Positions 1 through 14,363 of a stretch of 64,000 bases of DNA are shown here, piece after piece. The notes below the pieces were generated by a model. That model had not been told where the DNA came from, searched no databases, and was given only the letters and a program-made list of their open reading frames with translations. Location of the stretch: NCBI RefSeq assembly GCF_003334405.1, contig NZ_QOWM01000005.1. One strand, 5' to 3'. Position 1 is the first letter of the stretch, and every line of letters begins with the position of its first letter. Made by a program: the position numbers and the translations under genes. The DNA is from Escherichia coli (GTDB taxonomy: Bacteria > Pseudomonadota > Gammaproteobacteria > Enterobacterales > Enterobacteriaceae).

Positions 1-1155
1 TAATTTTAAAATTAATTCACCGGCATCAGGCGAATGTATCAGCGTAGCTAAATGTGAACCACACTTGCAAGAATTGAAGTTGCTGTCCACTTTAAATTTA
101 AAGCGTCCGTTAGCAACCTCAGCATATCGGTAATTTTCATTCTCACTTTTCTCTTTTAGTTCGATCCTGAATTCATTATTGATATTTTCTAAGCAATATA
201 AGAATTTTTCTATCTCATATTCGTTAGTTTCAATCCAAAGAGCAATTGCAAAACCCTTTAAGGTAGATAAATGCTTATCCGATAAGATTTTAGACAGCTC
301 AATGAAAAAATCATGATGATCACAAGTCATAGCATCGAACTCGCCCTCAAGATAATCGGCATCCACGCCTAATTTTGCAGCATAAGCCTGAATGTTATTT
401 TTTATACACTCTATAACTTCTGCTTCTGGTGGTAAATTATTTTCTGAGGGTAGGAAAACATTTTTAATACAATCTGAATTTATTCCTCTGCTTTTAACTT
501 GATCGGCATCGTAAACAGATACTATGTTCAGGCCAGAGCTATCTTTATAATGCTCAGATACTTTTTGTATATTAGATTCACCTTGTAGATTATGTAAGTA
601 ACATGTAGAGTAAAGATGTGTGTTTTTTATTTTTAAGATATATTCAAGTACAAGTTTTGCAAAGTCATCCTCTATCAGGAAAATATTTTTCCTTTCAGGA
701 GCTAAACCCAGTGCATTGAAATATCTATAATTATATCCACAATTTGATATGGTATATTTTTTGCCTTTTTTAGCTAAGACTAATACTGAGTTTAAGCCTT
801 GAGGGCTGAGTATGTGTTCAGAGTGAGTAGCCATCAAAACATTTAATTTTTTAGTATCGATTGTGTAGGCTAAAAAATCCATGAAATTTTTCTGGCTTAC
901 CGGGCAAATAAAACTCTCTGGCTCTTCAATGAAGAGGATTGAATTTTTTTCCGTATAAATAAGTTTCCAGATTGCTATAAGTAACTTATGTTCTCCTTGC
1001 CCCATACTCTCTGACGTATAAACTATATTACTGTTAACCTCTTTAACCTCAAAGTATGGGAAAGTTAAATCATCAATAATTCCTTCTACCTCATTAACTT
1101 TTACATACTCATATTTCTTGCCTGTGATTTTCTGAACAAAAAAAAAGATTTTCAT
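1..1155 (-). CDS. Distal part of an OLD/ABC-type ATPase-nuclease (Walker B, H-loop, Toprim-like motifs); 3' end lies beyond the window start
   Basis: Minus-strand frame from ATG at 1155..1153 stays open to position 1 (absent from the ORF track, translated by hand: MKIFFFVQKITGKKYEYV...). Walker B-like ILFIEEPE (~917..940), H-loop-like LMATHSEH, then NIFLIEDDF (~663..690) and VYDAD (~500..517) resembling Toprim E and DxD motifs. Confidence 0.5.
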   Translation of the reverse strand, partial: MKIFFFVQKITGKKYEYVKVNEVEGIIDDLTFPYFEVKEVNSNIVYTSESMGQGEHKLLIAIWKLIYTEKNSILFIEEPESFICPVSQKNFMDFLAYTIDTKKLNVLMATHSEHILSPQGLNSVLVLAKKGKKYTISNCGYNYRYFNALGLAPERKNIFLIEDDFAKLVLEYILKIKNTHLYSTCYLHNLQGESNIQKVSEHYKDSSGLNIVSVYDADQVKSRGINSDCIKNVFLPSENNLPPEAEVIECIKNNIQAYAAKLGVDADYLEGEFDAMTCDHHDFFIELSKILSDKHLSTLKGFAIALWIETNEYEIEKFLYCLENINNEFRIELKEKSENENYRYAEVANGRFKFKVDSNFNSCKCGSHLATLIHSPDAGELILKL

Positions 1156-1603
1156 TTAGCAAATGATAAGAATTTGATGTATTGAACCATCCATTTTTGT
1201 TTGGCGATGTGTTTATTTCGTTTATGATTTTTAATGCCATTGATGAAGCATCAAAATATTCAACATTTCTTAGTCCATCACCCAAAGACGAAGTGAAAGT
1301 TTGTTTCTCTCCATTAATTATTATATCAATGGAGATATTATCAATATCAGAAGAGCTAAAAATCCCAACATTACATATATCTTTCGACAGTATACCATAG
1401 ATAAGTTTCAATAACGACGTTTTACCAATGCCATTTCTTCCACATATAGAGGTTAAAGCTGAGTTTATCGTAATATCAGCATCTTCAAAGAGTGGTACAT
1501 TCTTAATGGATAAACTACATATTTTAATATTAAACTTTTTCCTGTTTGCCACATGATTCCAATAATCAGCTAATTTTGCCATTTTAATTGTTTCTATTGA
1601 CAT
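1109..1603 (-). CDS. N-terminal fragment of the same P-loop ATPase (Walker A), in a different frame from the downstream part
   Basis: 164-aa ORF with Walker A ICGRNGIGKTSLL (~1418..1444); stop at 1111..1109 lies 47 nt inside the 1..1155 frame; the overlap contains an A9/T9 run at 1138..1146. Confidence 0.55.
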   Translation of the reverse strand: MSIETIKMAKLADYWNHVANRKKFNIKICSLSIKNVPLFEDADITINSALTSICGRNGIGKTSLLKLIYGILSKDICNVGIFSSSDIDNISIDIIINGEKQTFTSSLGDGLRNVEYFDASSMALKIINEINTSPNKNGWFNTSNSYHLLNENLFFCSENHRQEI

Positions 1604-2799
1604 GTAGTTACCCCCGCTAAAACAGAATCTGCATAATTGTTGACGACGCTTATCAGATTCTTTTCATTTTCATGATAAAGTGCTCTATGCGCAGTTTTTA
1701 GATTATTTTTTTTCATCGTATTGAACACATCTGCTTTACTGGGGTCACTCTTCAAGAAAAATAGAGATATTATAAAGTCTCTGATGAGTAAGGAAGTACC
1801 AGTCATTACTCTTGATACAGCCCTAAAATTAAATTCTTCCAATAACTCCTTTACTTCATCTTTATTTTCACAATAAAACAATCCATCCAACACTCCCTCT
1901 TCTCTGAAAACGAATCTACCACTTTCAAAGCGGTAAAAGAAATCACTAAGGCTATCGTCTAAATTATAATTCGATTTTAAAATGGTTGAAAAAAAATAAA
2001 GCCATGAAGTTAAAGTGGCTTTTGTTATATGAACCTTACTTTCTTCACTATCAATCTTTTTCTTTGCCTTACTTAATATTAAAATGGATTTTTTTACTAG
2101 TTCTATGATTGAATTATCAAAAGGCTCATCTTCACGAGCCCTGTCGTTTAATTGCTTTTCTGTATAAGAAGCAATCAATGAATCCTTCTCAAGCATGTAG
2201 CAAAGTTTAATGAAAAGATCATGGTATGCCATCCTTTGATTACTAAAGCCTAGAAAGTGCTTGTCAAGCCCACAATCCGACATATAATCTACGAGAGATT
2301 TTATCTGGTTTCTTAAATCGCCAACATAAGCATTTCTCTTTTCTGCTGAAGTTAATTTAAGAGATTCATTCAATCTGTTGAATAGTTCACCGGGCTCTCC
2401 CTGATTGTATTCAACAATCTCAAATACTCGAATGGCATACCGTTCAAATCTGTTTTTTATTCTTTGAGGTAATTTATCAAAAGTTAATCCATCTAATTCT
2501 TTGATATCATCATCAATAGGTTCAATTAATCCATTTATTTTGAATTTATTATACATGAAATCTCTTATGGCACTTAATCGTTGCTGTCCATCGAGAACTT
2601 CTTGAATATAGGAATCTTCATTTAAAATAACATGGACAGGTGGAACCTGCCACCCTCTTAGAATAGTATCGATTAAAAGTTTTTTCTTCGGAAGTTGCCA
2701 GACTTCCGCCCTCTGGAAATCGGGTTGGAGATCTAGACTTCCTTCATGAATCCTAGAAAATATAGTCCTCAAATCTGGATCTGTAGTATTTATTTTCAT
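1594..2799 (-). CDS. DUF262 (ParB/Srx-like, GmrS N-terminal type) domain protein; no DUF1524/HNH partner domain apparent
   Basis: 401-aa ORF with LQPDFQR...VW and LDGQQRLSAI motifs (~2580..2603) near the N-terminus; start overlaps the upstream gene stop (ATGA at 2796..2799); AT-rich. Confidence 0.7.
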   Translation of the reverse strand: MKINTTDPDLRTIFSRIHEGSLDLQPDFQRAEVWQLPKKKLLIDTILRGWQVPPVHVILNEDSYIQEVLDGQQRLSAIRDFMYNKFKINGLIEPIDDDIKELDGLTFDKLPQRIKNRFERYAIRVFEIVEYNQGEPGELFNRLNESLKLTSAEKRNAYVGDLRNQIKSLVDYMSDCGLDKHFLGFSNQRMAYHDLFIKLCYMLEKDSLIASYTEKQLNDRAREDEPFDNSIIELVKKSILILSKAKKKIDSEESKVHITKATLTSWLYFFSTILKSNYNLDDSLSDFFYRFESGRFVFREEGVLDGLFYCENKDEVKELLEEFNFRAVSRVMTGTSLLIRDFIISLFFLKSDPSKADVFNTMKKNNLKTAHRALYHENEKNLISVVNNYADSVLAGVTTCQ

Positions 2800-5700
2800 T
2801 TCATTAACTCCCAGAATGCTTTATCACGCATTTTCCTAACTTTTTTATTTCCATCTATATACAGGCTAAAATGCTTCTCAAGTTGTCGTATCTGGCCCAT
2901 TAAAGACTCCTGCTCACTTTTATCGTCAATGTTAAATACCGCCTTAATGTCCGAATTCCTAATCTCAGAAACTCGATGAATTACCCAAGTGAGAATATAA
3001 GAAGCATAATTATTCTCGCCTGTTTTAAAGTGAGTAATTTCTTGTGTTGATAGAATCGCCCCTACACCATATTCACGGCCTTCTTTAAGGATTTTACGCA
3101 AGCTGGCAAAATCCTGGCGCATAAAGTTATCGGCTTCATCAACCAGAATCATTTTGGTTAACTGGCGATAATCACCTCGCACCGTCGGTTTCCCACGCTT
3201 TTGCATCTGCGCATAAAAAAGATCCAGTGTCAGTGCAACTACCAGGTTTTGAATCTCTGATGGATAACCAGCGAGTTCGATAACTGTGACTCCATCAACC
3301 AGATCGTACAAACTGGTCATCTTCTCTGGATCCGTTTCAAAAATCTGGAAACCAGCCAGATTATAAAGTGCAGCATATAATGAATCTTCGTCGACCTTCT
3401 CTTGTGCCAGGTACTGCTGCCACACATCTTCAATAGTCGGTGCTACACGATTCCATGTTGATCGATCATGAGGCACTATTCCTGCTAAGTCATAGCACTC
3501 CATTATTAACGTAACCAGCTTCATGCGTTGTTTTACGCCAAGGTTATACGCTTTGCCCATCGTTTCAGCGAATGCCATGGCCGTATGCCTCGGTAACATG
3601 GGCATATCACCAAATAACGATAACGGATTGTAAGGTAACAACGATAGCTGATACCTCTTAGCTCCCGTAGCTTCAAGAAACGCATCATCCACATAGTCGG
3701 ATTTATAGTCGAAGATCAACAAGCCAATCGGTTTACCGTCAACGTTGTAGGACTGATTGCGCATCAGTTGCGTAACCAGCGATTTAGTAAACTGGGTTTT
3801 CCCGGTGCCCATTGTTCCAATAATGCCGGTATTAGTATTCATGAACTTAGCGGTGTTGGTTGGTTCCCAGTACAATGGATTCTGACGCACAGCATCATGA
3901 CCAAACAAGATCTGTAATGGTGTATTGCGGACATTACTGGGGGTTAGTGCCGATGCTTCAGGTTGTGGAAGCTCCAGCGCAGAAATGGGCGGCGGCTCAG
4001 TTGTTGTTGCTACCTGTACTGGGTGTGAAGAATTGACATCACACTCTGGTTTGAGCAGATATTTTTCCGGCACCCGATAGCGTTCAGCTAGTGGAGGTTG
4101 ATCACCTTGTGCTGCAATTAACGATGGAAGCAATGAATAGGGGATTTCGATCTGTAGAATATTCTCTGCCGTTTCTTTATAAGAGAGATCAAAACAGGTT
4201 CCGCTGTCTACATGAGCTACCACAAAGCCTTCTGCATAATCAGCAAGCTCACCTAACTGATAGTCGCCAGTGAGCCACCATTCACGTCGTTCCAGCAGAG
4301 GGGATAGCTTGTCGTTATCCAGTACACCATACAGACGCAACTTCTCTACCTGCATTAATACTTGGCGGATAAAAAGTGCCCGGTATAGTTGTGATGCTAG
4401 AGTTTTCGGCCCAAGAATATCTTGCTGTAAATAGCGTTTTAGCTCGCGGGCCTGCTGCCCCGCATGGTTGTAATCGGGGCGAGCTCCTGTTTTTACTTCA
4501 AGTGGTAACAGATACAGGTTGTTATCTTTGAAACCGACAAAGAGCACATCGTCAGAGATCGCTCCTTTCTGATAACCCTGTAAATGGCGCGATAAATCGC
4601 TTTCTTTCATTCTCAGCCCGACGTTGCCGGACACGCGGATCATCTCAGCTACTGACAGTGGAATCCAGCAAATATCTGACTGGAGCAGCATAGACTGTAC
4701 GAATTTGTATGCACCGATAATGCCGTGTTTTTCTTTGCGCTCCTTTTCATTTGAACGCAACATTTTTAACAGCCACTCACCGTTAAAGGCATTAAATTCA
4801 GCAAGTAGTTGCTGGCTATCAACGGTGGATTGTCCTGTTTGAAGGAGACGCAGGAACAACTCAACCTGTTTTGTGACAGTTACGGCGTCATAACCAGCAC
4901 AACTGGTGTACTGGTCAGAGTAATGAATTAGTACGACATCTTTTTGACTAGTAAAGAAATCGAGTGTGACCTTAGGGTCGATAATTGTGGTCCAGAGAGA
5001 GCTATCATAAGAGCGATTCAGCAGTTGCTTAAAGTTACCGCTCACAGCCAGACTAATTCCCTGACCGTGATACTGGCTGTTGCTCTGCCGTGCCGGTTGC
5101 CACAGACAGCCTAACAAGCGGGCGAGACGCAGGGCGCAAGACGATTCAGTATCGACATTACGCAGACCAAACGCGGTAAAGTAAGCATCGCCTTGTGTTT
5201 CAGCCCCTTCGCCTGCAATCAAGCCATGACATAAAACCCCGCTGGCAGCATCCTCAATGCGAATTTGGCGGCAATCAACCGGTGCGGTGTTGGTGAAAAA
5301 TGCGAGATGGGCGTAAGCCAGTTGATCGCTTTCCGGTGGCAGGATAAATTTGCTGAATGTTAAGCGACTGCGAAGCAGATCGATCAACATATCGGCTTCA
5401 GAACGCCACGCACCGCTGTTCAGACCAAGATCATTTTTAAGTTGTTCATAGCTGCCGCTTTCGGCAAAGCGGTCAAAGGCATTGGGTAGCAGACGTTCGT
5501 CATAGCAGTTTACGTGTATCGAAATTGCGTTATCTTTTTCCTGCTTAAAATAATCTACCAGTCCCAGGAATAGCTCTCTGGCTTCTCCCATATTAATAGC
5601 ATTAATAACCAGGGCATTATTTCCTGCACTCTGGAACAGCCGAGAATAGGCATCTGTAAATTCGTTTAGCTTGTCTTTCACCAGACGCTTAACATATTCG

Positions 5701-7880
5701 TGGCTCATCTGGCGCTGGGGAACAATATCTATCCAGAAGCGGTTTTCTACCATCGGTTGTAACTGTGCGTATTCATGTTCGCTATGATACACAAATGGCA
5801 TTAGGCCAGAGACGACCAGACGATCTAGAGTAATCTCTGGTAATGAAGCGAAGGAAGCTGATGTGGGGTATCCGGGCTCGGCGATAATAGTTTCAGCTAG
5901 CTGTAAATGATAAGCCATTACCAATGGGTGCAGAGGCGAGAGACGTTCATAATCGTCGCCGCGGCAAATCCCCAGATGTAACAGACGTTTTTCCTGGATG
6001 GTTAATGCTCTGCTTAGACTGATTTGCTGTAATGCCTGTTCAAAAGTAGCGATCATGTGACTGACTAATACACGATATTCTGCTGACCATGACACCAGAC
6101 TCGGCAGGGTATTTCGACGTTGATAGTAAACGAACAATTGGTGGTACGCATTATGGAGGTCGGGATAGCTCGCCAGAAGCTCATCCAGTGCAAACTCACT
6201 ACCATTACTGCCAGTGCTGAGCAGATTACGCTCGATCAGGGCGTACTCTTGCATAAGCAACTGCTGGCGAACACCAACCACATTATGTTCGATATTGTCC
6301 AGGATGACGCGACCTTTCAACTTGTTCCAGGTTGCATTCCCTTCTTCTTTAAAGAGTTTATTGAAACGACCCTGATCAAAAAGCAGAGGCAGTGTTAATC
6401 CTTCCTCTGCTCCTGGACCTTCGATGTTAAACAGTAAACGGGAGTCACCTGAAATCAAGGTAAATTTGATCAGCTCACTTTGATTCGCCAGCGTTTCAAA
6501 ATTAACGAGTGCATAATGGCGGCAATCAACATCATCACTTTCTTCATCAAGTAAACAGGTCTTGTCGCCGAACTCTGCAATACGTAACTCATTATCTTCC
6601 AGTTGCAGAGTTAATTGACCTTTACCAGGTTCAATACGATAACAATGCTGGATTTCATTAAGCCAGAATTGCCCTTGTTCAACTAACAGCAGGCGAAACT
6701 TGTACTCTTCTGCTGAGTTATTGCGGTTAATGATTTCGAGGCTAAAGAAGCAGGGCCGACCATCAAAAGGCACTGATGCCAGTATCTTAGAGTTTCTCCC
6801 CCCGAGCCGGCTAGTACGCCAGAATCGTTCTTTCTGTAACGGACGATGATGAGCAATTTTTACCTGATTGTCCTGAAGGTCGTTACCCTGGAAGATAAAC
6901 TCCAGCTCAACTTGTGACTGCCCCGGTAGAACCTGAACCAGGACACTGATATCTCGTTTACCTGCTTTACTGGTGCTTTTGGCTCTTTGCCAGACCTCAC
7001 CGTTTTCAGCAGTAATGTTTTCCAACACCAGTTTCTGTTCACTGTTTTGTGCTTTTTCATTCAGGTAGACGGAGAAATCAAGCTCACGCCAATCGTCATT
7101 GTCAACGAAATGCTCCTGAATGAATTTTGCACTAAATTCAGTTAGTACATTCTCCAGTTGCCCGCTGTAGCGTTCAACACTGTCCTCTATCTGGCGATAT
7201 AACTTTTGGTTTTCATTGAGCCGGGCGCGCAACTGCTTATCACTAAAATTCAGCAGGTTATTATCGTTGAATAACTTTAGCTCTGAGAAATCCAGATTGC
7301 CGTCGTCCAGCAGACGGTATAACGATGAAAATCCAAAAACCGTAGCGCCTTCATCCAATATTGTTGTCAACTGATCGCCCAGCAAACAGCGGGATACTTG
7401 AGAACGGGCGCTGTCCGTTGTGATTAACTTTTCGAGCTGGTGACGGAAGGTTTCTGGATGCCAGATAGCATCCGGTGCAGCGACATCTTTGGTACTATTG
7501 AGTAAGGTATCCAGCATGCTGTTGTGGATAATCAACAACGCTGTCTGGGCAAAAATGCCATTGCGGCCAGAAACCTGATCGCGTAAATGAGAAATATAGT
7601 TTTCTGTGAATGCAGGGGTAGTGGTGCCGTGCAGTACCGGAATAAGCTGGATATTATTACATTGGACGTAGGTAAGAAATTGCTCCGGTGCAATTTCTAG
7701 TTTATTTCCATTTGCTAAAGAGTCGAAAGCCTTCCAGAGCTTTAAGGCGTTATCCGGATCGGGAGATTTAAACTGGTAGCGCTCACCAGGCTGGATGATG
7801 CTGCTAACCCATTCAATGAAGGTTTCTGCCAGATAGGTTTCATACTGTTTTACGGACATATACGGCGTCTCCACTGTCAC
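2796..7880 (-). CDS. Large (1694 aa) island protein with C-terminal HerA/FtsK-type P-loop ATPase; possibly DptH/DndH-like
   Basis: Walker A GTMGTGKT (~3795..3818), Walker B ILVDEAD (~3129..3143), then REYGVGAILSTQ (~3028..3080) resembling the HerA/FtsK arginine-finger and TQ motif. Candidate PD-(D/E)xK motif VLFVGFKD...LPLEVK (~4491..4540). Start could instead be the Met at 7859. Confidence 0.65.
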   Translation of the reverse strand: MTVETPYMSVKQYETYLAETFIEWVSSIIQPGERYQFKSPDPDNALKLWKAFDSLANGNKLEIAPEQFLTYVQCNNIQLIPVLHGTTTPAFTENYISHLRDQVSGRNGIFAQTALLIIHNSMLDTLLNSTKDVAAPDAIWHPETFRHQLEKLITTDSARSQVSRCLLGDQLTTILDEGATVFGFSSLYRLLDDGNLDFSELKLFNDNNLLNFSDKQLRARLNENQKLYRQIEDSVERYSGQLENVLTEFSAKFIQEHFVDNDDWRELDFSVYLNEKAQNSEQKLVLENITAENGEVWQRAKSTSKAGKRDISVLVQVLPGQSQVELEFIFQGNDLQDNQVKIAHHRPLQKERFWRTSRLGGRNSKILASVPFDGRPCFFSLEIINRNNSAEEYKFRLLLVEQGQFWLNEIQHCYRIEPGKGQLTLQLEDNELRIAEFGDKTCLLDEESDDVDCRHYALVNFETLANQSELIKFTLISGDSRLLFNIEGPGAEEGLTLPLLFDQGRFNKLFKEEGNATWNKLKGRVILDNIEHNVVGVRQQLLMQEYALIERNLLSTGSNGSEFALDELLASYPDLHNAYHQLFVYYQRRNTLPSLVSWSAEYRVLVSHMIATFEQALQQISLSRALTIQEKRLLHLGICRGDDYERLSPLHPLVMAYHLQLAETIIAEPGYPTSASFASLPEITLDRLVVSGLMPFVYHSEHEYAQLQPMVENRFWIDIVPQRQMSHEYVKRLVKDKLNEFTDAYSRLFQSAGNNALVINAINMGEARELFLGLVDYFKQEKDNAISIHVNCYDERLLPNAFDRFAESGSYEQLKNDLGLNSGAWRSEADMLIDLLRSRLTFSKFILPPESDQLAYAHLAFFTNTAPVDCRQIRIEDAASGVLCHGLIAGEGAETQGDAYFTAFGLRNVDTESSCALRLARLLGCLWQPARQSNSQYHGQGISLAVSGNFKQLLNRSYDSSLWTTIIDPKVTLDFFTSQKDVVLIHYSDQYTSCAGYDAVTVTKQVELFLRLLQTGQSTVDSQQLLAEFNAFNGEWLLKMLRSNEKERKEKHGIIGAYKFVQSMLLQSDICWIPLSVAEMIRVSGNVGLRMKESDLSRHLQGYQKGAISDDVLFVGFKDNNLYLLPLEVKTGARPDYNHAGQQARELKRYLQQDILGPKTLASQLYRALFIRQVLMQVEKLRLYGVLDNDKLSPLLERREWWLTGDYQLGELADYAEGFVVAHVDSGTCFDLSYKETAENILQIEIPYSLLPSLIAAQGDQPPLAERYRVPEKYLLKPECDVNSSHPVQVATTTEPPPISALELPQPEASALTPSNVRNTPLQILFGHDAVRQNPLYWEPTNTAKFMNTNTGIIGTMGTGKTQFTKSLVTQLMRNQSYNVDGKPIGLLIFDYKSDYVDDAFLEATGAKRYQLSLLPYNPLSLFGDMPMLPRHTAMAFAETMGKAYNLGVKQRMKLVTLIMECYDLAGIVPHDRSTWNRVAPTIEDVWQQYLAQEKVDEDSLYAALYNLAGFQIFETDPEKMTSLYDLVDGVTVIELAGYPSEIQNLVVALTLDLFYAQMQKRGKPTVRGDYRQLTKMILVDEADNFMRQDFASLRKILKEGREYGVGAILSTQEITHFKTGENNYASYILTWVIHRVSEIRNSDIKAVFNIDDKSEQESLMGQIRQLEKHFSLYIDGNKKVRKMRDKAFWELMK

Positions 7881-9165
7881 TCATTCTCTCCACATTTCCC
7901 ATGCGTTCATAAAACGCAACCAGCATTTGTGTAGACTGGTTATCCAGATAAAATCCGCGTTGCTCAAAACCACGTAGCAGCTCATGCAGACGGAGTTTTT
8001 TGTTTTTACCCACGGTAAGGTTAGTTAGTAGCAGTAGTCGATCCTGGTTCAGTACCAGCACTTTCCCCGCTCGGCCACGAACCTGAATGAAGTCAGTGCA
8101 AATCTGGCTTTCCAGCTCGTTGATGTATTTGCGATTTACCGCTGCTCGCTCGGTTTTCTTACCCTGAAACTGTTCAACGGCAACAGATAACAGCTGTTTA
8201 AAGGCATCTTCCAGGTTTGTAGCACGATCGCGTTCAGGAAGGTCTCGCTCCTCCTTACTAATGAACTTCTGTATATAATTATTGAGTTCATTTAGTACTC
8301 GATTCGATGTATCTGAATAACCTAAGCAATCTTGATATACCTGCCAAAGAGGGCGCTTTTCCTCACCTTTTACTTGTAATACCTCTAATGCAGAGAGTAC
8401 GGGGAATAATTTTTCACTTTGGCGGGCAAACCACTTATAGCCGAAGAGCTTTATTTTATCTCGTTCGGAGCTAGCTTTTTCAGTATCGAGGATAAAGAAC
8501 AATGATTTACTCTGCGGCTCGCCGTCTTGCCAGTTGTCCAGATTGAGCGCCAGTTGTGCGCACCAACTAAAGGCATACAAACGTAGAGTATTGGTCAGCT
8601 CCTGCAAAAGATATTGTGGGTGCTCTGCCAGAAACGCCAAATCAGACTGAAAACACGTTACCAGATAGGGTAAATAAGGTTGTTCTTTTGCAAATGGCCC
8701 CTCACCCAGTCGGATTAATTTTTTATTGAGCTTATTCAGCATCTCTTTTTCAATAAAATTCAACTTATCTTGTATCGGGTTATTAAGGCTAAAATCTCTC
8801 ATCAAATTGGCAAACAGTGTTCCAAGGCGTTTGTCGGCAGTCGAGCCTGCACTTATCTTTTCACCATCAAACTGAGCGTGGAACAGCAAGAACAGCGGGG
8901 AGACACGAAAAATATCCTGACTGGAAAAATACATCCGTTCCAGCACGGACAAGAACGCAGGTTCATCGATCAATATTTGCAGATGAGTTTTACAATCCTC
9001 GCGAAACTGCTCGAGACTGTATGTATCGATTTTATACTTCACGGCATAGCTCAGTACTAAACCTGTGACGATTTGCCAGTCAATATTGTTATTCTTATTA
9101 CGTATTGGAAGGTAGCTATCCAGCTGGTTATTACTAACTTTTAAATTTGTTGCAATGGGATACAT
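7840..9165 (-). CDS. 441-aa island protein with no recognisable motif; possibly DptG/DndG-like
   Basis: ORF sits 4 nt downstream of the 549-aa gene and overlaps the 1694-aa gene start by 41 nt; AT-rich codon usage. Confidence 0.6.
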   Translation of the reverse strand: MYPIATNLKVSNNQLDSYLPIRNKNNNIDWQIVTGLVLSYAVKYKIDTYSLEQFREDCKTHLQILIDEPAFLSVLERMYFSSQDIFRVSPLFLLFHAQFDGEKISAGSTADKRLGTLFANLMRDFSLNNPIQDKLNFIEKEMLNKLNKKLIRLGEGPFAKEQPYLPYLVTCFQSDLAFLAEHPQYLLQELTNTLRLYAFSWCAQLALNLDNWQDGEPQSKSLFFILDTEKASSERDKIKLFGYKWFARQSEKLFPVLSALEVLQVKGEEKRPLWQVYQDCLGYSDTSNRVLNELNNYIQKFISKEERDLPERDRATNLEDAFKQLLSVAVEQFQGKKTERAAVNRKYINELESQICTDFIQVRGRAGKVLVLNQDRLLLLTNLTVGKNKKLRLHELLRGFEQRGFYLDNQSTQMLVAFYERMGNVERMSDSGDAVYVRKTV

Positions 9166-9169
9166 GATG

Positions 9170-10819
9170 TTATCCCTCCATGCCGCTGATAGTAATCATG
9201 TCATCGTCCGCTCTTGCACTATAGACCCGCTTTAGGCCATCATAAAACTTGATTTCGCTGCTGGATTTTGCCTTTTCTGCGATTAGTTCAACGATTTCGT
9301 CCAGTAAGACAATCGCACTTTTATCATACTTATTAGGGCGATAGCCATTATTTAGTTTGCTCAATAGCTCAAATAAATTAAGACCGATCCGAATCGGATC
9401 TAGCGGATCTTGTCCTACTTTTAAATAGATATCGAAACAAGTTGTATGGGCTGTATTTTTCTTGAGAATTGAATCCCAGTCCGGTTTCAGCGCAACAGGT
9501 GCTGTGATTTTAATCCCACCAAATTCGCCTAAAAAGAACTCTTCTTTTTGGGTACTCAGTTCAGGTGCTTTACGGTTTGCGTAACGCTGAATACCAGCGA
9601 TAAGCTCGAAAGAGTAAAAGCGGTTTAGTGTTCTTTTTTGTTCCGGATCTGCGGTATAGTTTTTATGCAGATGCCAAATCTCTGAATAACGCTCAAAGAG
9701 CGCTTCTTTAAAGAATACAGAGAACCTTTTGTGATAGTTATTCCCTAAAGATTCATGTTGTAGTAGCCAGAAAAGTCTAATTAATGAAGCTGCGTCACCA
9801 GGCTTAACACATTGACGATCAAACGTAAGATGTAATTTCGCAAGTGTACTCAGAAAATCATCCAGTTCGGGATCAACTAATCCAAGCTCATAGCGCAAAA
9901 TAAATTGATCAATCTCGTATGTATGCAATCTGGCAGGATCAAAATCAGAAACCTTTTTAATTAGATCATTCTCTGCACCATTAAACAGATTATCAAACAG
10001 GTACCCAGGCCCTGTCAGCAGGTGGTGTAAAAAATCCAATAAGGTTCTTGTGGTAACAAATTGATCTTTTATTAATCGGGCTTTAAATAGCTGTGTTATT
10101 AAAACATTCTGAACACCGGGCATGCACAGTAGTTTAAAGTTAGCAACGGTTTTTAAATCATGTCCTATTGATTCATCACGTTGATAAATTGTGTAAAACA
10201 GGTTTTTGTCGTCATTCCCCGTTAATTGATTCATTAATTTTTTGATAAAAGGGGAGTATTCCCGCTCTTCGTCAAACTCGAACTTTGGATAATGTTCGAA
10301 ATCAAAAAATATACAATTTTCGTTGCGGTAAGGACGCTGGCCTTCCTGTTGCGCTGACAAGAATGAGTCAATAGCAGCACGGATAGCCATATGGGACTCA
10401 GAACCTTCTCTGGCAAAATTGGCTAGCATCCCGGTGTTGATACCGATGAGGAGCGGGTATGATTGCGAATGATGATTTTCAAATAAATCATTCAGTGCAT
10501 CGATAGCCGATTGTTGAGGCGCAAAGCTATGTGTCGCATCCAGATGGAAACTAAACTTCTGTTGATATTGTGGATCTGACTTACAGCGGGTTAAAATTTC
10601 GGATTTCCCGTCTCCACTACTTCCGCATAGAAAAATGATCTCACCGGGAGTAGCTGTATCCAGATAACGCTGTAACTCTTCTTCAATCTCTTGTTTAACA
10701 AAGAGTTGTTCTTTTAGCTCATCGAACACATCCTTTTGCCGATGAGTTTCTGTGGTTACGGAAAACGAAGATGACTTCGCAAGTACACCTAACGCTTTAC
10801 GTAATGTGATCGCGCTCAT
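9170..10819 (-). CDS. 549-aa P-loop NTPase, first gene of the island operon; possibly DptF/DndF-like
   Basis: N-terminal P-loop FLCGSSGDGKSE (~10597..10630); first ORF downstream of the 209-bp gap after the integrase. Confidence 0.6.
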   Translation of the reverse strand: MSAITLRKALGVLAKSSSFSVTTETHRQKDVFDELKEQLFVKQEIEEELQRYLDTATPGEIIFLCGSSGDGKSEILTRCKSDPQYQQKFSFHLDATHSFAPQQSAIDALNDLFENHHSQSYPLLIGINTGMLANFAREGSESHMAIRAAIDSFLSAQQEGQRPYRNENCIFFDFEHYPKFEFDEEREYSPFIKKLMNQLTGNDDKNLFYTIYQRDESIGHDLKTVANFKLLCMPGVQNVLITQLFKARLIKDQFVTTRTLLDFLHHLLTGPGYLFDNLFNGAENDLIKKVSDFDPARLHTYEIDQFILRYELGLVDPELDDFLSTLAKLHLTFDRQCVKPGDAASLIRLFWLLQHESLGNNYHKRFSVFFKEALFERYSEIWHLHKNYTADPEQKRTLNRFYSFELIAGIQRYANRKAPELSTQKEEFFLGEFGGIKITAPVALKPDWDSILKKNTAHTTCFDIYLKVGQDPLDPIRIGLNLFELLSKLNNGYRPNKYDKSAIVLLDEIVELIAEKAKSSSEIKFYDGLKRVYSARADDDMITISGMEG

Positions 10820-11028: not shown

Positions 11029-12297
11029 TTAGCGCTTTAACGACGCAAAAATTTTGGCAAAATCAAACGGGCTAATCACTTTCTCGCGATTTACATCTAG
11101 AAAATCCGCCCACCACTGCAACATCAATCTTCTCTCATCCAAATGTTCTGCCTTATGGATATAAGCCGCTCGAACGGAGTTACGTTCCATATGGCTCATC
11201 TGACGCTCTACCGCATCCCTCGACCACAGCCCTGACTCAATCAGCGAGCTACATGCCATAGTCCTGAAACCATGCCCACAAACCTCTACCCTAGTGTCAT
11301 AACCCATAACGCGCAGCGCCTTGTTCACCGTGTTTTCACTCATCGGTTTACGCGGATCATGATCGCCAATGAAAACAAAATCGCGCTCGCCACTAAGCTT
11401 GTGAACCTGTTTGAGGATTGCCAGAGCCTGATGAGACAATGGCACCAGATGAGGTGTGCGCATTTTAGAACCACGTTGAGAGTGCTTCACTCCTTCGATA
11501 GCTTCTCGTTCTGCCGGTATCGTCCACATTGCCGTATCGAAATCGATCTCAGACCAGCGGGCAAAGCGCAATTCACTGGAACGAATGAAGATTAATAAGG
11601 TTAGCTCAACAGCCAGGCGGGTCAAAGGGCGTCCCGTGTAACCGTCAATTCGGTGGAGCAGTTCAGGTAGACGTTTCAGCTCAAGTGCAGGGCGATGGAC
11701 ACGGTTACTGGAAGCAACTGCGCCAGCCATCTCTTGAGCCGGGTTGTAATCAATCAGCCCACTTTGTACCGCATAGCGCATGATTGCTGTGGTTCTCTGC
11801 TGAAGGCGAGAAGCAACTTCAAAGCGGCCTGTCGCTTCCACGATTTTTATGGGTGCAAGCAGGTCACGAGTTTTTAGCTCTTCGATACTTCGTCTGCCAA
11901 TTGCCGAGAACAAATTGTCCTCTAAGCTCTTCAATACCCTTCGGCTGTGTTCTTCGGACCATTTCTTATTAGTAGCGTGCCATTCTCTGGCAACTGACTC
12001 GAAGGTAATAGCCTCTTTCGCCTGTTCTTCTTTCACAGCACGTTTATGCTCGCGAGGGTCGATTCCAGCAGCAACAAGTCTCCTAGCCTCTTCTCTTTTT
12101 TGACGGGCATCAGCCAGTGAAGTTTCAGGGTAAACACCGAAAGCCATCAGGTGTTGCTTGCCACCGAAGCGAAAGCGGAACCGCCAGTATTTTGAGCCGT
12201 TGGGATGAATCAGCAAAAACATGCCATCCCCATCGACTAGGGTGTACTCCTTTTCCTGCGGTTTCGCAGAACGTACTTTAGTATCTGTCAGAGCCAT
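11029..12297 (-). CDS. intB: P4-type tyrosine integrase (IntB-like), apparently intact
   Basis: 422-aa ORF next to a tRNA 3' end; the C-terminal region (around ...EVCGHGFRTMACSSLIESGLWSRDAVERQMSHMERNSVRAAYIHKAEH) has tyrosine-recombinase-like R/H..R/Y spacing; position matches P4-like tRNA-associated integrases. Confidence 0.85.
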   Translation of the reverse strand: MALTDTKVRSAKPQEKEYTLVDGDGMFLLIHPNGSKYWRFRFRFGGKQHLMAFGVYPETSLADARQKREEARRLVAAGIDPREHKRAVKEEQAKEAITFESVAREWHATNKKWSEEHSRRVLKSLEDNLFSAIGRRSIEELKTRDLLAPIKIVEATGRFEVASRLQQRTTAIMRYAVQSGLIDYNPAQEMAGAVASSNRVHRPALELKRLPELLHRIDGYTGRPLTRLAVELTLLIFIRSSELRFARWSEIDFDTAMWTIPAEREAIEGVKHSQRGSKMRTPHLVPLSHQALAILKQVHKLSGERDFVFIGDHDPRKPMSENTVNKALRVMGYDTRVEVCGHGFRTMACSSLIESGLWSRDAVERQMSHMERNSVRAAYIHKAEHLDERRLMLQWWADFLDVNREKVISPFDFAKIFASLKR

Positions 12298-12496: not shown

Positions 12497-12581
12497 TGGT
12501 GCCGAAGGCCGGACTCGAACCGGCACGTATTTCTACGGTTGATTTTGAATCAACTGCGTCTACCGATTTCGCCACTTCGGC
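12497..12581 (-). tRNA. leuX: tRNA-Leu (leuX)
   Basis: Plus strand reads TGGTGCCGAAGGCCGGACTCGAACCGGCACG...GCCACTTCGGC, the reverse complement of an 85-nt tRNA-Leu with CCA end at the low coordinate facing the integrase. Confidence 0.9.
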
Positions 12582-13799: not shown

Positions 13800-14363
13800 T
13801 CATTCGCAGCGCTGATCTGAGGCGCTGCCCTCTTTCGCACATATTCTGTTTTGTCGTATCGCCAGCACAGCCTGCCGACATTGTTCAGTGACATTGGCAA
13901 TATCATGGTTGATATCAATGCGCACAATATCCTGTTCATCTTCTTGTGGACGCTCCAGTGCCTCAAACTGACTTTTTAGTAACGCTACCGGCATAAAATG
14001 CCCAGCCCGACGCTGCATTCGCGCGAGAATAGTTTCATAGTCGCCATCTAACCAGAGGAAATGAACATGGGGGCTACCCTTGCGTAAAATATCACGATAC
14101 TGTTTTTTTAATGATGAACAGACAATAAATCCTGTTTCATTCTTTTTATAAAGACTGTATGAAGCATCATTTAAGCGTTCCAGCCAGGGAAGTCGATCTT
14201 CATCAGATAATGGAATACCCTGCGACATTTTATCTATATTTTTGGCTGGATGAAGATCGTCACCATCAATAAATTTAGCAGATAATAACGCGGCAACCTT
14301 GCTACCAATTAATGTTTTACCACTCCCTGAAACGCCCATCAAAATAAAGCTTTCACCCGCCAT
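13800..14363 (-). CDS. idnK: D-gluconate kinase, thermosensitive
   Basis: 187-aa ORF with P-loop GVSGSGKT; sits in the idn gene cluster. Confidence 0.9.
   Translation of the reverse strand: MAGESFILMGVSGSGKTLIGSKVAALLSAKFIDGDDLHPAKNIDKMSQGIPLSDEDRLPWLERLNDASYSLYKKNETGFIVCSSLKKQYRDILRKGSPHVHFLWLDGDYETILARMQRRAGHFMPVALLKSQFEALERPQEDEQDIVRIDINHDIANVTEQCRQAVLAIRQNRICAKEGSASDQRCE

Follow-up and report, generated by a model that had tools for sequence, protein, structure and literature searches.

Phosphorothioation (PT) of DNA is sensed by DndI of Salmonella Cerro 87 (PDB 9JFL) and by SspE, nickases in which a DUF262 domain is joined to a DUF1524/HNH domain. The gene for DndI is described as adjoining dndBCDE and being cotranscribed with dndFGH, and DndI works with DndBCDE alone, its ATPase being stimulated by PT (PMC11662687). 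DndF, DndG and DndH are reported to form a 2:2:1 complex that binds, translocates on and nicks DNA (PMC10470545). DndB has a ParB fold with a related helical domain at its C-terminus, and Li et al. called the helical region in NsnA, a DUF262 protein of the Menshen system, the ParBDB DNA-binding domain (PMC12065111). HEC-04 is a validated Hma-embedded ABC-ATPase-TOPRIM defense gene in which K62, E319, D375 and D377 are essential (bioRxiv 2024.01.29.577857). Here we analyze a 64,000-nt stretch of Escherichia coli DNA (contig NZ_QOWM01000005.1, assembly GCF_003334405.1), referred to as the window, which holds part of a dnd island. Next to dptH it carries a gene for a 401-aa DUF262-only protein (1594..2799) and, directly downstream, a gene encoding an ABC ATPase joined with a Toprim domain (1..1603, with the last 9 nt beyond the window). 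All window features given below lie on the minus strand. We are confident that the two genes form a sensor and nuclease module. We also lean, with much less assurance, toward the view that this module is a split, DndI-like cassette that acts in dependence on PT.

The open reading frame (ORF) at 1594..2799 starts with ATG and had been described in an earlier note, made from the letters alone, as a DUF262 protein without a C-terminal nuclease domain. Both parts of that description are borne out. The only Pfam domain is GmrSD_N/DUF262 (PF03235; residues 11-159, E 5e-20), with PDFQRAEVW at residues 26-34 and DGQQRL at residues 70-75, and no further Pfam domain appears even at E<=10. The ParB-like DUF262 NTPase domain takes up residues 1-160 (2320..2799). 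In an alignment of 51 homologues, its motifs Q29-R30..W34, D70-G-Q-Q-R74 (nt 2578-2592) and F140..N144 are invariant, and H56, within DUF262, is the only invariant histidine. In an AlphaFold2 (AF2) model with a pLDDT of 90.9 and a pTM of 0.83, an alpha/beta ParB-like domain gives way to a purely helical stretch at residues 161-400; prediction of this half had been proposed as a check. An intact DUF1524/HNH domain in the C-terminal half, the one observation that the note had said would overturn its description, was looked for with hidden Markov models, in the predicted structure and by fold search, and was found by none of them.

The all-helical half (residues 161-401; 1597..2319) was delimited from the AF2 secondary structure, coverage by the NsnA model and conserved columns. 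Residues conserved along it among the 51 homologues are R155, N156, G184, F185, R189, D194, K260, W266, E292, R326, S336 and R340. In PADLOC, the best defense-system match of the protein is NsnA (3e-33; protein residues 2-279, profile positions 45-331 of 385), and the second is PD-T4-2_A (5.5e-18; residues 17-279). Residues from about 161 to 279 lie within the NsnA model and are ParBDB-like. The stretch 280-401 is specific to the family, with conserved R326, S329, R330, R340 and D341. The helical domain is probably DNA-binding.

Neither the single protein nor a profile of 51 sequences had a significant match in the PDB (best match BrxU, E 0.31), so that the PT-sensing patches of DndI and SspE could not be placed on the protein residue by residue. 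By sequence, the 401-aa protein has no detectable relation to any solved DUF262 protein and hence is no truncated DndI, SspE or BrxU. We had considered a truncated DndI in particular and rejected it: sequence similarity is lacking, BrxU is closer in fold than DndI, and about 150 clusters at 50% identity keep to a narrow length range of 390-410 aa. The family comprises about 157 clusters at 50% identity with E<=1e-30, and its full-length members, with few exceptions, measure 380-415 aa. It is found in Gammaproteobacteria, Bacillota, Bacteroidota, Alphaproteobacteria and further groups.

The partner gene overlaps the DUF262 gene by 10 nt. Its intact form in B7A, a model strain for PT, encodes 536 aa and is annotated as an 'ATP-dependent nuclease'. 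Pfam matches are AAA_15, AAA_21 and AAA_23, with no match to DUF3696. The best PADLOC model is HEC-04 (2e-27), which is also the sole match of the C-terminal half when searched alone (1.2e-11; profile positions 312-487, the part with the Toprim site); NsnB gives a partial match (2.8e-14; residues 188-266). Across 43 homologues, the Walker A motif G55-K61 (nt 1418-1441), the signature residues M200, G203 and E204, the Walker B residues E227-E229 and H260 of the H-loop are invariant, and E226 is nearly so. The same holds for the Toprim residues, the catalytic glutamate E311 (nt 670-672), D312 and the D365xD367 motif (nt 502-510), and the spacing E311...D365xD367 mirrors E319/D375/D377 of HEC-04. 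The motifs of both proteins are intact in their families. The AF2 model of the partner (pLDDT 89.3) has an ABC head and a four-strand Toprim-like unit (306-383), followed by a helical domain (392-473) and a small beta domain (478-534). Judged by sequence, the partner is of the HEC-04/OLD type, with an ABC ATPase and a Toprim nuclease in a single protein.

We then asked how regularly the two genes occur together. In a scan of genome contigs, about 20 of the 80 loci among the matches listed were true family members, none of them close relatives; close relatives were taken from a separate search for contigs encoding them. At the DNA level, a homologous ATPase gene lies directly downstream of the relative's DUF262 gene in 24 of 27 loci, in most of them abutting or overlapping the DUF262 stop. 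The other three have a contig edge or no ORF at this position. Wherever the ATPase-Toprim gene was found, a DUF262 gene precedes it, and no consistent third gene stands beside the pair across the loci examined. The earlier note had proposed a modified-DNA sensor that passes cleavage to a partner. This proposal fits the evidence best, except that the likely partner is the downstream ABC-ATPase-Toprim gene and not the large ATPase gene upstream, because the pairing is so regular and includes at least 19 loci without dptFGH.

The upstream gene, which the note had seen as coupled to the DUF262 gene, is indeed coupled to it. It is dptH/dndH, a 1694-aa ORF (2796..7880; PADLOC 2832 bits, TIGR03237 1210 bits), and the ATG of the DUF262 gene overlaps its stop codon by 4 nt (ATGA, 2796-2799), so that both belong to one operon with dptH upstream. 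This arrangement raises the alternative that the 401-aa protein is an accessory subunit of the DptFGH complex, sensing DNA status and signaling to DptH, and the order dptFGH-DUF262-ATPase is also kept in Yersinia, Aeromonas, Vibrio, Shewanella and Pseudoalteromonas. However, no dptFGH is visible beside the pair in five dnd-linked lineages and 14 other loci, and E. coli FORC_041 has near-identical dptFGH but a different cassette. In addition, DndFGH is reported as a 2:2:1 complex with binding, translocation and nicking activities (PMC10470545). We consider such a subunit very unlikely.

The earlier note had also raised a DndB-like regulator, a ParB-fold, ATP-modulated DNA binder that would control dnd/dpt transcription or the level of PT. 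DndB does share the ParB fold and a related helical domain (PMC12065111), and in Serratia fonticola an extra DndB-family gene (L100 8783-9991) is found upstream of the DUF262 gene, 10 nt away. Yet the motif is DGQQR and not DGQHR, and the 401-aa protein matched none of the NCBIfam models, those for DndB and DGQHR proteins included. Each dnd-linked locus has a genuine dndB, and the DUF262 gene always comes with a gene for a nuclease that retains its catalytic motifs. This suggestion was not sustained, and we regard a regulatory role of this kind as very unlikely.

All relatives with at least 50% identity that were looked up, and several at 43-47%, lie beside dndBCDE. The pair occurs together with both dndBCDE and dptFGH in E. 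coli, Yersinia, Aeromonas, Vibrio, Shewanella and Pseudoalteromonas. In Photobacterium dptFGH is probably present as well, where the contig cuts the upstream gene. Among the remaining dnd-linked loci, dptFGH is absent within 10 kb in Salmonella, P. fluorescens and Pseudomonas sp. 1079, and does not appear in the DNA available for Pseudomonas sp. 8209 and Serratia fonticola. The pair is convergent with dndBCDE in enterics and in tandem with it in Pseudomonas. In Salmonella (L007/L008), the pair and dndBCDE stand amid the conjugative-transfer genes TraC, TraU, TraG, TraI and ArdC and are probably carried on an integrative conjugative element. Serratia fonticola has a PIN-domain gene between the nuclease gene and dndE (L100 12930-14048).

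Genomic linkage to dndBCDE is thus conserved in 12 lineages, and these form one clade. Of 200 bootstraps of a neighbor-joining tree, 199 recover a split between the 12 dnd-linked proteins and 14 others, where splits that include one member of unknown context and splits that leave it out are both counted. The dnd-linked members depart from the rest at nine positions (such as E127 versus R/K and T259 versus N), none of which could be tied to PT sensing. The nucleases differ as well. Those of the dnd-linked clade are about 50-60 residues longer, a length that corresponds to the C-terminal beta domain (478-534; window 1-170), whereas the non-dnd relatives have 473-487 aa and lack this domain. The Marinobacter nuclease carries a different extension, which resembles a cold-shock domain.

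The strongest competitor to PT dependence is a stand-alone, PT-independent defense module that has lodged in a dnd island and senses a phage protein, DNA ends or, as GmrSD does, hypermodified DNA. The 14 members without dnd genes within 10 kb speak for it, and several of them lie in ordinary defense islands, beside Gabija, RosmerTA, AbiE, AbiH, type I HsdR or MmeI-type restriction genes. The nearest models, NsnA, PD-T4-2_A and HEC-04, all come from PT-independent systems, and defense genes are often embedded in other systems (bioRxiv 2024.01.29.577857). Against it stands the well-supported dnd-linked clade, within which linkage outlasts both rearrangement and loss of dptFGH. Moreover, in three marine lineages, Shewanella, Pseudoalteromonas and Photobacterium, a gene with a ScoMcrA-type sulfur-binding domain lies directly upstream of the DUF262 gene (L102 2312-2788; L093 8909-9778; L101 8968-9840). 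The Photobacterium protein is 158 aa long and has that hit alone, with no HNH hit on record.

The position of the pair bears on the same question from both sides. B7A and FORC_041 are 97.8% identical over dndBCDE and 94.9% over dptHGF-integrase, yet where B7A has L001 13885-16798, from the last 25 nt of the dndE 3' end to the dptH stop codon, FORC_041 has 1.8 kb of unrelated sequence (L098 17954-19734). The FORC_041 segment encodes a 179-aa hypothetical protein and DNA phosphorothioation-associated DGQHR protein 1 (TIGR04172, 9.5e-118), and strain 55989 has a hypothetical protein and a TIGR04172 DGQHR protein in the same slot. The boundaries of the cassette can therefore be read directly from the replacement. 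GC content is 31-34% in the DUF262 and nuclease cassette versus about 45% in dptH. Among 207 E. coli genomes with dndC, 13 have the DUF262 cassette and 141 match the DGQHR-type cassette. The position of DndI in Salmonella appears to correspond to the slot after dptH. Together, the replacement between B7A and FORC_041 and the location of DndI indicate that cassettes with a ParB-superfamily protein at their core are exchanged at this slot, whatever their role in PT. In Shewanella and Pseudoalteromonas, a sulfur-binding-domain-HNH gene and the pair also appear to sit there.

That the slot carries different cassettes in different strains agrees with a PT-independent lodger. However, its other occupants, DndI and the TIGR04172 DGQHR protein, are associated with PT. 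Taking both sides into account, we judge a PT-independent module unlikely, though it deserves more weight than the two alternatives above. Whether the pair depends on PT at all we hold to be evenly balanced.

If the split, DndI-like reading is correct, the 401-aa protein would be a nuclease-free sensor/NTPase subunit, its ParB-like domain binding and hydrolyzing NTP and its helical domain binding DNA. The ABC-ATPase-Toprim protein would be an ATP-gated nuclease effector. In the dnd-linked clade, the DUF262 subunit would use its NTPase cycle to read whether DNA carries the PT that DndBCDE writes. On the model of DndI, hydrolysis stimulated by PT might release the sensor from self DNA; on that of SspE, PT might instead activate the sensor. 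The sensor would then license or withhold the Toprim nuclease, such that PT-free invading DNA is nicked or cut and PT-marked self DNA is spared. Domain and motif content, pairing, cassette boundaries and clade structure are what we observe; contact between the two proteins, DNA cleavage, dependence on PT and its direction are what we infer.

Several observations weigh against this reading. The pair is known here from genes alone, and a PT-binding residue could not be mapped in the 401-aa protein. The pair could lie beside dndBCDE because they are inherited together on mobile islands and not because they function together. No dnd gene stands within 10 kb of fourteen other family members, whose identity is 38-45%. 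HEC-04 defends as a single gene, whereas the partner gene here always follows a DUF262 gene. Finally, one or both genes are disrupted in three E. coli genomes, this window counted.

In the window, the disruption affects the nuclease gene. A homopolymer at 1138..1146, A9 on the plus strand and T9 in the coding sense, spans 9 nt in this copy, against 8 nt in B7A and 7 nt in EC416; matching alignment lengths indicate that it is also 8 nt in the other 11 genomes with the cassette. The resulting +1 frameshift leaves a 164-aa N-terminal ORF (1109-1603), with the rest in another frame. Since the effector gene is frameshifted, the two-gene module may be inactive in this window, as far as its sequence tells. 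In EC416, a -1 change also affects an A8 run within the DUF262 gene (window 1989-1996). In HUM3355, C is changed to T at window-equivalent 2001, and the DUF262 gene is annotated as two ORFs. Long-read errors in homopolymers, genuine decay and tracts prone to slippage are all possible sources of these differences. A T9 run could in principle allow transcriptional slippage, which is reported for Shigella mxiE, and sequencing error is equally possible.

The window holds an E. coli B7A-type dnd island and matches 13 of 5,426 complete E. coli genomes, B7A among them, at 99.8% identity or more. Read along the minus strand, the order is tRNA-Leu, integrase, dptF, dptG, dptH, the 401-aa ORF and the ATPase gene that reaches the window edge. 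The tRNA-Leu(CAA) gene (12497-12581) is the insertion site of the island and adjoins the gene for its integrase, a tyrosine recombinase (11029..12297); the island integrase of FORC_041 and 55989 is frameshifted or partial. dptF/dndF lies at 9170..10819 (PADLOC DndF; TIGR03238) and dptG/dndG at 7840..9165 (PADLOC DndG; TIGR03236). With dptH, the three dpt identifications are unambiguous by PADLOC and TIGR models. In B7A, dndBCDE is convergent and lies just past window position 1. Between the convergent dndE and the nuclease gene, just outside the window (B7A L001 ~13955-13975), a perfect hairpin, CCACCTCCTAGGGAGGTGG, is followed by a T run and is probably a bidirectional terminator that closes both operons.

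It is possible, and we propose it tentatively, that the pair is an unrecognized PT-dependent restriction partner of DndBCDE, a functional class to which DndFGH, DndI and PbeABCD belong, and a two-protein counterpart of DndI. About 45% of dndBCDE clusters have been called 'solitary' (PMC6435447), and if the proposal is true, the pair would account for some of these, with Pseudomonas and Salmonella as examples. A pair that reads PT would represent a new architecture for PT restriction, in which one protein is the sensor and another the ATP-driven Toprim nuclease. Two genes within the dnd cluster of B7A, a reference strain for PT, have neither name nor role in the searchable literature. The B7A 'dndBCDEFGH' clone pWHU4387 was assembled from fragments of 8,286 bp and 8,321 bp (PMC10470545). 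Together these are longer than the 15,969 bp from the start of dndB to the end of dptF in B7A, so the clone most likely includes both genes. In that case the module would have been carried unnoticed in B7A constructs, and published phage-protection data for the whole cluster would need re-reading.

How does the pair compare with described systems? DndI and SspE share the DGQQR-type DUF262 NTPase domain with the 401-aa protein. GmrSD, SspE and DndI end in a DUF1524 His-Me (HNH) domain, which the 401-aa protein lacks. Like the pair, DndI occurs with dndBCDE both with and without dndFGH. Relative to type IV enzymes such as GmrSD and BrxU, the absence of the DUF1524 nuclease is accompanied by no sign of modified-cytosine targeting.

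The Menshen system resembles the pair in placing a DUF262 gene before a gene for an OLD-type ABC ATPase. NsnA consists of DUF262 and the ParBDB helical domain, and by profile coverage and helical model the 401-aa protein appears to have this composition too, with the extra conserved helical region 280-401. NsnB ends in DUF3696, whereas the partner ends in Toprim and helical domains, with the beta domain in addition in the dnd-linked clade. The third Menshen gene, NsnC (an inactive PIN domain plus an effector), is absent here; in B7A the hairpin and the convergent dndE follow the nuclease gene. Without an NsnC gene and without DUF3696, membership in Menshen was ruled out. PD-T4-2 of E. coli ECOR65 is described in the literature as a DUF262 system without DUF1524, and PD-T4-2_A matches the 401-aa protein; PD-T4-2_B was not among the hits shown for the partner.

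HEC-04, the closest match of the partner, shares with it the ABC ATPase motifs and the Toprim Glu/DxD residues, and the nucleases of the dnd-linked clade differ from it by their extra C-terminal beta domain (478-534). DGQHR protein 1 (TIGR04172) is a ParB-superfamily protein in the identical dptH-dndE slot of FORC_041 and 55989, but it belongs to the DGQHR family and has a small hypothetical partner and no ATPase-nuclease partner.

A literature search returned no name (such as DndJ or DndK) and no description for a DUF262 and ATPase pair beside dnd, and a survey by the Aravind group lists HKD, HNH, REase, URI, HEPN and PIN nucleases near Dnd, with this pair not listed. DUF262-only sensors (Menshen, PD-T4-2, Dazbog), ABC-Toprim nucleases (OLD, Gabija, HEC-04) and DndI as a DUF262-based PT partner were already known. 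By the searchable literature, what is new is the combination of DUF262 with an ABC-Toprim nuclease, its dnd-specific clade, and its presence both in the B7A cluster and in dndBCDE loci free of dptFGH.

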